Shown here one piece after another: positions 42,696 through 45,058 of a stretch of 64,000 nt of DNA. The stretch is from the NCBI RefSeq assembly GCF_041886205.1, contig NZ_CP169029.1; one strand, 5' to 3'. The position numbers were made by a program, and so were the translations under genes. Numbering within the stretch: position 1 is the first letter of the stretch; each line of letters starts with the position of its first letter. Source of the stretch: Escherichia coli. Its GTDB lineage: Bacteria; Pseudomonadota; Gammaproteobacteria; Enterobacterales; Enterobacteriaceae. The notes beneath the pieces were generated by a model that was not told the DNA's origin, did no database searches, and saw only the letters and a list, made by a program, of their open reading frames with translations.

Positions 42696-43601
42696 TTCAA
42701 AGAGATGACAGACACACACTATATTGGCCGCTTCGCCCCCTCTCCTTCCGGCGAGCTTCATTTTGGTTCTCTGATTGCTGCGCTTGGCAGCTATTTGCAG
42801 GCTCGCGCCCGGCAAGGTCGCTGGCTGGTACGCATAGAAGATATCGACCCGCCTCGTGAAGTTCCCGGTGCCGCAGAAACTATCCTGCGCCAGCTGGAAC
42901 ATTACGGCCTGCACTGGGACGGCGATGTTCTCTGGCAATCGCAACGTCACCACGCCTATCGCGAAGCACTCGCCTGGTTACATGAGCAAGGACTAAGTTA
43001 TTACTGCACCTGCACGCGTGCGCGTATTCAAAGCATTGGTGGTATTTACGACGGTCATTGCCGGGAATTGCATCATGGACCAGATAACGCCGCAGTGCGT
43101 ATCCGCCAGCAGCATCCGGTCACCCAGTTTACTGACCAGCTGCGCGGCATTATTCACGCCGAAGAAAAACTGGCGAGGGAAGATTTTATTATTCATCGCC
43201 GTGATGGTTTGTTTGCCTATAACCTGGCGGTGGTGGTGGATGATCACTTCCAGGGCGTGAGCGAAATTGTCCGCGGGGCAGATTTGATCGAACCGACAGT
43301 GCGGCAAATCTCGCTGTACCAGCTTTTTGGCTGGCAAGTGCCAGATTACATTCATCTGCCGCTGGCGCTTAATCCACAAGGCGCTAAACTTTCCAAGCAG
43401 AATCATGCGCCTGCGTTGCCGAAAGGCGATCCACGCCCGGTACTAATCGCGGCACTTCAATTTCTGGGGCAGCAGGCAGAAGCACACTGGCAGGATTTCA
43501 GCGTCGAGCAAATCCTTCAGTCAGCCGTCAAAAACTGGACGCTGACCGCCGTGCCTGAGTCGGCAATTGTAAATTCAACATTCTCAAATGCGTCATGCTG
43601 A
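42675..43601 (+). CDS. gluQ: glutamyl-Q tRNA(Asp) synthetase GluQ (YadB), truncated GluRS paralog
   Basis: Class-I aaRS catalytic domain ([23 protein letters not shown]). Longest ORF starts at ATG 42675 (308 aa), which lies inside the dksA terminator hairpin; in-frame ATG at 42705 ([10 protein letters not shown], 298 aa) is an alternative start. Confidence 0.85.
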
Positions 43602-43660
43602 GCTATGATTAGCCGCTATTTTTTTGTCCTGAATGATGTTTGACACTACCGAGGTGTACT

Positions 43661-45058
43661 ATTTTTACCCGAGTCGCTAATTTTTGCCGCAAGGTGCTAA
43701 GCCGCGAGGAAAGCGAGGCTGAACAGGCAGTCGCCCGTCCACAGGTGACGGTGATCCCGCGTGAGCAGCATGCTATTTCCCGCAAAGATATCAGTGAAAA
43801 TGCCCTGAAGGTAATGTACAGGCTCAATAAAGCGGGATACGAAGCCTGGCTGGTTGGCGGCGGCGTGCGCGACCTGTTACTTGGCAAAAAGCCGAAAGAT
43901 TTTGACGTAACCACTAACGCCACGCCTGAGCAGGTGCGCAAACTGTTCCGTAACTGCCGCCTGGTGGGTCGCCGTTTCCGTCTGGCTCATGTGATGTTTG
44001 GCCCGGAGATTATCGAAGTTGCAACCTTCCGTGGACACCACGAAGGTAACGTCAGCGACCGCACGACCTCCCAACGCGGGCAAAACGGCATGTTGCTGCG
44101 CGACAACATTTTCGGCTCCATCGAAGAAGACGCCCAGCGCCGCGATTTCACTATCAACAGCCTGTATTACAGCGTAGCGGATTTTACCGTCCGTGATTAC
44201 GTTGGCGGCATGAAGGATCTGAAGGACGGCGTTATCCGTCTGATTGGTAACCCGGAAACGCGCTACCGTGAAGATCCGGTACGTATGCTGCGCGCGGTAC
44301 GTTTTGCCGCCAAATTGGGTATGCGCATCAGCCCGGAAACCGCAGAACCGATCCCTCGCCTCGCTACCCTGCTGAACGATATCCCACCGGCACGCCTGTT
44401 TGAAGAATCGCTTAAACTGCTACAAGCGGGCTACGGTTACGAAACCTATAAGCTGTTGTGTGAATATCATCTGTTCCAGCCGCTGTTCCCGACCATTACC
44501 CGCTACTTCACGGAAAATGGCGACAGCCCGATGGAGCGGATCATTGAACAGGTGCTGAAGAATACCGATACGCGTATCCATAACGATATGCGCGTGAACC
44601 CGGCGTTCCTGTTTGCCGCCATGTTCTGGTACCCACTGCTGGAGACGGCACAGAAGATCGCCCAGGAAAGCGGCCTGACCTATCACGACGCTTTCGCGCT
44701 GGCGATGAACGACGTGCTGGACGAAGCCTGCCGTTCACTGGCAATCCCGAAACGTCTAACGACGTTAACCCGCGATATCTGGCAGTTGCAGTTGCGTATG
44801 TCCCGTCGTCAGGGTAAACGCGCATGGAAACTACTGGAGCATCCTAAGTTCCGTGCGGCTTATGACCTGTTGGCCTTGCGAGCTGAAGTTGAACGTAACG
44901 CTGAACTACAGCGTCTGGTGAAATGGTGGGGTGAGTTCCAGGTTTCCGCGCCACCAGATCAAAAAGGGATGCTTAACGAGTTGGATGAAGAGCCGTCACC
45001 GCGTCGCCGTACTCGTCGTCCACGCAAACGCGCACCGCGTCGTGAGGGTACCGCATGA
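43661..45058 (+). CDS. pcnB: poly(A) polymerase I PcnB (465 aa), AUU start codon
   Basis: Nucleotidyltransferase motif [17 protein letters not shown]; start assigned to ATT 43661..43663 preceded by GAGG, following the published AUU initiation of pcnB; ORF-track TTG start 43640 is 7 codons upstream. Confidence 0.85.

Follow-up and report, generated by a model that had tools for sequence, protein, structure and literature searches.

The pcnB gene of Escherichia coli very probably starts at an AUU codon that is conserved across Enterobacteriaceae

Introduction

Where does translation of pcnB, the gene for poly(A) polymerase I (PAP I), begin? Gene callers ignore ATT, and the identical protein appears in public databases with five N-termini. 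We consider this question for a stretch of 64,000 nt of Escherichia coli DNA (the window). A first-pass annotation, made from its letters, had placed the start at an ATT codon and had called other assignments a common annotation error. That description is apt: the same E. coli protein has been deposited as 465, 472, 454, 437 and 414 aa, and the 465-, 472- and 454-aa versions are each found on 1000 contigs or more.

In E. coli, initiation of pcnB at AUU was established by Binns and Masters (2002; Mol Microbiol 44:1287), as cited in PMC3561954, PMC5499595, PMC9764084 and PMC8496165. The AUU start is already known, having been published in 2002 and entered in the reference annotation, and the window adds no discovery in this respect. 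Hecht et al. list no confirmed non-canonical starts of E. coli besides those of infC and pcnB, and they measured initiation at AUU at 1–2% of that at AUG. In PMC3561954, AUU is said to limit PAP I to about 30–50 molecules per cell, with overexpression being lethal; the introduction of that paper calls the pcnB start “UUG”, and its discussion “AUU”. The main text of a Ribo-RET preprint (10.1101/520783) does not mention pcnB.

Results

Identity and reading frame of pcnB

On the + strand of the window the genes run sfsA-dksA-gluQ-pcnB-folK-yadN. The features needed to follow the argument at the start of pcnB are:

43634..43636, + strand: in-frame TGA at position -27, the nearest upstream stop of the pcnB frame
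43640..43642, + strand: TTG, the rival start of the 472-aa form; in frame at -21, without a Shine-Dalgarno (SD) sequence
43651..43656, + strand: SD sequence GAGGTG, matching the 16S anti-SD over 6 nt; a variable 4-nt spacer separates it from the ATT
43661..43663, + strand: very probable AUU initiation codon of pcnB; the RefSeq start (K-12, LHM10-1), ATT in 80/80 species, and the start given in the literature
43661..45058, + strand: pcnB coding sequence (PAP I), 465 codons plus TGA, identified by NCBIfam, Pfam and K-12 identity
45055..45534, + strand: folK, whose ATG overlaps the pcnB stop (ATGA, 45055–45058)

The product matches the NCBIfam PcnB equivalog NF008634 with 997 bits (cutoff 702), profile positions 1–468 of 469 lying on residues 1–464, and the first profile position falls on the first residue of the ATT-started protein. 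It also carries, above cutoffs, the Pfam domains PF01743, PF12627 and PF12626 (PolyA_pol, PolyA_pol_RNAbd and PolyA_pol_arg_C), and it matches the poly(A) polymerase structures PDB 3AQK–3AQN with E = 1e-283 or better.

The first-pass annotation had proposed the K-12 annotation as a check on the start, and the two agree. The coding sequence of the K-12 reference gene b0143 (157729..159126, 1398 nt) begins at the base equivalent to 43661 and reads ATTTTTACCCGA; K-12 and the window are alike in the ATT, the SD sequence, the protein and the order sfsA-dksA-gluQ-pcnB-folK. From 43557 to 43800 the two are identical, and the complete coding sequences differ by 13 synonymous changes, none of them at the start site, with no amino acid differences. 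PGAP likewise begins the gene at ATT 43661 (465 aa) in strain LHM10-1, which is identical over the 701 nt compared. Among 5,426 complete E. coli genomes, 5,424 have a match to these 701 nt around the pcnB start, six of the strains listed being at 100%.

The neighboring genes provided two further observations. The overlap between the pcnB stop and the folK ATG makes co-transcription of the two genes probable, and their translation may be coupled as well. Annotations of gluQ disagree about its start, with 927 nt (308 aa, ATG 42675) in K-12 versus 897 nt (298 aa, 42705) from PGAP in LHM10-1.

A strong Shine-Dalgarno sequence precedes the AUU codon

The sequence upstream reads TGA(43634) TGT TTG(43640) ACA CTA CCG AGG TGT ACT ATT(43661), and continues from the ATT with TTT ACC CGA GTC GCT AAT TTT TGC CGC AAG GTG(43694). 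The positions and reading frame first claimed for the ATT, the GAGG upstream of it and the TTG at 43640 are therefore correct. As the nearest in-frame stop is the TGA at 43634–36, only the TTG at -21 and the ATT can precede the conserved N-terminus. The program-made open reading frame (43640..45058) takes the former and has 472 codons; counted from the ATT there are 465.

The gap between GAGG (43651–54) and ATT is 6 nt, or 7 if counted from G to A. The duplex of GAGGUG with the anti-SD has an energy of -9.8 kcal/mol, better than at any of the 34 long-ORF starts in the window (median -4.65). The TTG, which had been described as having no good SD, yields only -2.3 kcal/mol, equivalent to none. 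The pcnB SD sequence is thus strong, against the “poor ribosome-binding site” repeated in several papers, a wording apparently better suited to the earlier assignment to UUG than to AUU. The bare motif GAGG-N6-ATT shows no enrichment in the window (3 matches versus 6.3 expected), so the motif alone proves nothing, and the signal lies in its context and conservation.

If translation instead began at TTG 43640, the product would have 472 residues and the ATT would simply encode an isoleucine within the protein. Bacteria do use TTG as a canonical start, and no other canonical codon here would preserve the conserved N-terminus. The 472-aa form is also widely deposited (on at least 1000 contigs, and as a RefSeq MULTISPECIES entry), and the introduction of PMC3561954 speaks of UUG together with a poor ribosome-binding site. 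However, the TTG lies on the upstream side of the GAGGUG, from where this SD sequence cannot bring it into the P site, and both the reference annotation and the literature chose AUU rather than TTG. Together with the species comparison below, this makes the TTG highly improbable as the pcnB start, although a minor 472-aa product might conceivably be made from it in E. coli.

An out-of-frame mini-ORF of 8 codons without an SD sequence (43654–43680; GTG TAC TAT TTT TAC CCG AGT CGC TAA) overlaps the ATT. It is kept in all species because the block that contains it is invariant.

The ATT codon does not vary across Enterobacteriaceae

A single scan of species-representative genomes yielded 80 loci, all from Enterobacteriaceae, with protein identities of 86–100%; 79 sequences entered the alignment of the start region and 81 the count of upstream starts. 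The pcnB start codon was ATT in 80 of 80 species and never ATG, GTG or TTG, whereas the start of the neighboring folK toggles between ATG (38) and GTG (31). There are 19 conserved isoleucine-type columns in pcnB, and ATT and ATC interchange in 18 of them; codon 1 alone is monomorphic, a difference from every other conserved isoleucine codon that argues against its being an internal one. GAGGTG was invariant in all 79 aligned sequences, followed by 4 nt that vary in sequence at fixed length, and then by the ATT and about 30 nt that are almost invariant.

The region upstream is quite different. TTG occurs at -21 in just 27 of the 81 sequences and ATG in 2, and 43 of them lack any ATG, GTG or TTG in the interval from the upstream in-frame stop to the ATT. 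Three sequences (L051, L063 and L077) carry TAA at -15, and some have stops at -18, -21 or -24. The seven extra codons of the TTG form are not conserved as protein.

The two ATG codons at -21 (1480–1482 in L022 and L023, Salmonella enterica subsp. diarizonae and arizonae) are in frame and have no SD sequence. Gene callers will almost certainly choose them, adding 7 residues.

Codons 1–9 are invariant within Enterobacteriaceae and so carry no coding signal; the argument for translation there rests on codons 10–17 and on distant lineages. At codons 10, 11, 13, 15, 16 and 17 the amino acid is constant but synonymous codons alternate, Leu13 being encoded by six different codons. Because codons 10–17 vary in this manner with their amino acids conserved, the stretch must be translated. 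Combined with the upstream stops, this places the start between -12 and codon 9, where ATT is the only plausible initiator.

Distant lineages and the downstream start codons

Outside the family, the SD sequence and ATT are both kept in L083 (67% identity, same synteny), which reads GAGGTGtaccATT, and in L085, a reduced genome of 1.08 Mb (62% identity), which reads GAGGTGtcctATT and in which the gene is called at the ATT. The metagenomic sequence L084 (55% identity) has GAGG-N8-ATT ATT ACA. In L087 (54% identity; 1114–1203), a TAG is followed by CTG GGA CGG ACC ACT ATC AGA CGC GTT..., and the conserved helix is reached without any ATG, GTG or TTG after the TAG; judged from this sequence, the start is probably the ATC (1129) or the CTG. 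Across the distant lineages codons 2–11 are conserved as protein, with conservative changes and no frame shifts. In distant homologs that do begin with a canonical Met, this Met lies no more than about 4 residues away from the E. coli ATT position, and the same basic amphipathic segment is present. In E. coli, the N-terminal 18-residue helix has a hydrophobic moment of 1.46, versus 0.71 ± 0.35 in shuffles.

Two peculiarities of these distant loci were seen in passing. In L083 (1501–2998, GCA_014218195.1) pcnB is split into ORFs of 316 and 150 aa, by a frameshift or pseudogene formation or through an assembly error. In L087 the gene caller cut the protein back to an ATG 24 codons downstream.

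The first-pass annotation had seen neither an ATG nor a GTG that was suitably placed. Such codons do in fact occur in frame further downstream, at the following positions:

43694..43696, + strand: GTG codon 12, source of the 454-aa annotation; conserved in 80/80 species, without an SD sequence, and not a credible start
43745..43753, + strand: GTG codons 29 and 31; codon 29 (43745) is the source of the 437-aa annotation, and codon 31 is at 43751
43814..43816, + strand: ATG codon 52, the start first proposed by Liu and Parkinson (414-aa form)

The remark was thus too strong: these codons are present, and what makes them unsuitable is that they either have no usable SD sequence or would remove conserved residues.

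A start at GTG 12 would give 454 residues and would turn the stretch from the ATT to codon 9 into a conserved untranslated leader. The conservation of this GTG in every species, the nucleotide invariance of the preceding stretch, which a regulatory leader could also show, and the deposition of the 454-aa form on at least 1000 contigs all speak for such a reading. Against it, there is no SD sequence before codon 12 (-0.1 kcal/mol), codons 10 and 11 change at third positions only, and the codon itself is GTC in L085, GTC in L087 and TTA in L084, none of which can initiate, in lineages where codons 2–11 evolve conservatively as protein. The amphipathic helix shared with homologs that have a canonical Met, and its hydrophobic moment above that of shuffles, point the same way, as does the curated model NF008634, which includes the residues before codon 12; codon 12 is a valine within the conserved helix. 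We therefore give a start at GTG 12 almost no credence.

A principal start at GTG 29, GTG 31 or ATG 52 is just as hard to credit, since it would drop 28–51 residues when residues 1–18 and 31–51 are highly conserved. ATG 52 was the original proposal and has a sigma-S promoter, pS1, ahead of it within the coding sequence, but pS1 is active under unusual conditions only, and codon 52 is ATG in 23 of 80 species and a leucine codon in the other 57. Codon 29 is ATG in 73 species, GTG in 4 and ATT in 3; it has no conserved SD sequence, and that in E. coli has an energy of -4.5 kcal/mol.

The same codons might instead serve a minor, E. coli-specific short PAP I isoform without the N-terminal helix. 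Anti-PAP I western blots show two bands, which others have interpreted as a possible sign of alternative starts, and ATG 52 has been discussed in the literature as a possible start for a short form expressed from pS1. Crystallized active PAP I cores begin at residue 28, and within 43743–43753 an SD-like AGGTGA (-8.2 kcal/mol) comes shortly before GTG 31, which makes this GTG a possible source of the second band. Yet GTG is found at codon 31 in merely 7 of 80 species, and we consider such an isoform rather unlikely.

Two further ideas were considered and set aside. Codon 29 was rejected as a conserved internal start, the alternation of Met, Val and Ile without a conserved SD sequence being an ordinary hydrophobic exchange. 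The crystal structures are uninformative about the N-terminus, as the constructs begin at residue 28.

Taken together, the position of the start, its SD sequence and its conservation argue that pcnB translation very probably begins at the AUU at 43661–43663, the identification of the start in E. coli itself coming from the literature. The description of AUU initiation at PAP I as an established finding is borne out by the K-12 and PGAP annotations, by the citing papers and by the comparative data.

Codons 2–9 are nearly devoid of synonymous variation

Immediately after the AUU codon lies a block that hardly varies even at synonymous positions:

43664..43687, + strand: codons 2–9 (TTT ACC CGA GTC GCT AAT TTT TGC), with near-zero synonymous variation; taken as part of the initiation region

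Among the 80 species, codons 2–9 have a mean synonymous entropy of 0.054 bit versus a gene mean of 0.95, tied for the lowest of 320 windows along the gene. There are 14 monomorphic codons in pcnB, and seven of them fall within codons 1–12. The neighboring genes gluQ and folK have no comparable dip in synonymous variation at their 5' ends.

RNA structure was rejected as the cause: the block folds no better than shuffles (z = +1.1), contains no inverted repeats, and matches no Rfam family better than E = 7. A direct repeat, ATTTTTACC / ATTTTTGCC (43661 and 43680), is short, has two copies and is possibly due to chance. The most economical reading may be stabilizing selection on every base of an initiation region whose output, from a weak codon, is low but not zero. 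It is also conceivable, although we think it unlikely, that GAGGUG-N4-AUU and the next 27 nt (43651–43690) form a dedicated cis-regulatory module, either a tuned initiation region or a binding site for a trans-acting RNA or protein. If so, a trans-acting factor at 43651–43690 would set the level of PAP I, for instance by tying this level to growth rate by way of IF3.

Synonymous variation is also low (about 0.25–0.3 bit) in a second block, codons 36–48 (43766–43804), just upstream of ATG 52. It is located where the published pS1 promoter and the SD sequence of Liu and Parkinson must be, and a link between these elements and the block is putative.

Promoters upstream of pcnB

A single promoter-like site was found between 43350 and 43900:

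43581..43609, + strand: sigma-70-like promoter with TTCTCA and TATGAT 17 nt apart, within the last part of gluQ; conserved across the 79 aligned sequences

It implies a 5' UTR of about 45 nt and may be pB, the major promoter described in the literature. For a second published promoter, pS2, PMC2939334 locates the start sites 263 to 265 nt upstream of the ATT and gives TAAACT as the -10 element. In the window, TAAACT occurs at 43385–90, just upstream of 43396–98, which is -263 to -265 counted from ATT 43661; this fit cross-checks the published numbering.

Discussion

Two features of the class of AUU starts represented by infC and pcnB are seen here: an N-terminus that is conserved and translated upstream of any usable canonical start, and a conserved AUU with an SD sequence at functional spacing, the latter likewise in L083, L085 and L084. 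Experimental evidence for a native protein that begins at the AUU, and for higher expression after a change to AUG, comes from Binns and Masters (2002) as cited by others. A mechanism can be proposed on this basis. The strong and invariant GAGGUG at 43651–56 would position the 30S subunit, and the initiator tRNA would then be left to pair with AUU, which is only near-cognate and would be subject to discrimination by IF3; for the IF3 step we draw on what is known of AUU starts and on the cited papers, PMC5499595 treating rejection of non-canonical starts by IF3 as a general property of AUU starts. Because of this discrimination, only a small fraction of binding events would yield protein, namely the 465-residue PAP I beginning (f)Met-Phe-Thr-Arg-Val. 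PAP I would thereby be kept very scarce, which presumably matters because an excess is toxic: according to PMC3561954, excess PAP I polyadenylates tRNAs and kills the cell.

The AUU codon had also been called an autoregulatory feature that keeps the enzyme low. Low expression is upheld, but autoregulation is not, the term having conflated pcnB with infC and IF3. Like pcnB, infC (which encodes IF3) has a non-canonical, phylogenetically conserved AUU start of the kind that IF3 discriminates against. Unlike pcnB, its product is the discriminator itself, so that its AUU gives true negative autoregulation. PAP I is not an initiation factor, and any regulation of pcnB would come through IF3 rather than PAP I. 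The two proteins also differ in abundance, IF3 being present at about 5500 molecules per cell (PMC5499595) versus about 30–50 for PAP I (PMC3561954). PMC3561954, PMC5499595, PMC9764084 and PMC8496165 describe limitation of expression only and no feedback of PAP I on pcnB translation, and for this reason we do not place pcnB in translational autoregulation of the infC type. On our analysis, the mechanism at pcnB is one that would limit expression and depend on IF3, probably with no feedback of PAP I on its own mRNA. A further parallel is ebpA of Enterococcus faecalis, where, according to PMC4447247, a rare ATT start also attenuates expression and the gene was also misannotated at a downstream ATG, although gene and organism are unrelated to those considered here.

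The practical value of these results is in annotation, and the frozen codons 2–9 and the strong SD sequence are small points for specialists. The invariant GAGGTG, the 4-nt spacer and the ATT provide a comparative rule by which pcnB starts can be corrected in Enterobacteriaceae and beyond. The underlying biology is established: the AUU start helps to keep the PAP I content of a cell down to a few tens of molecules.
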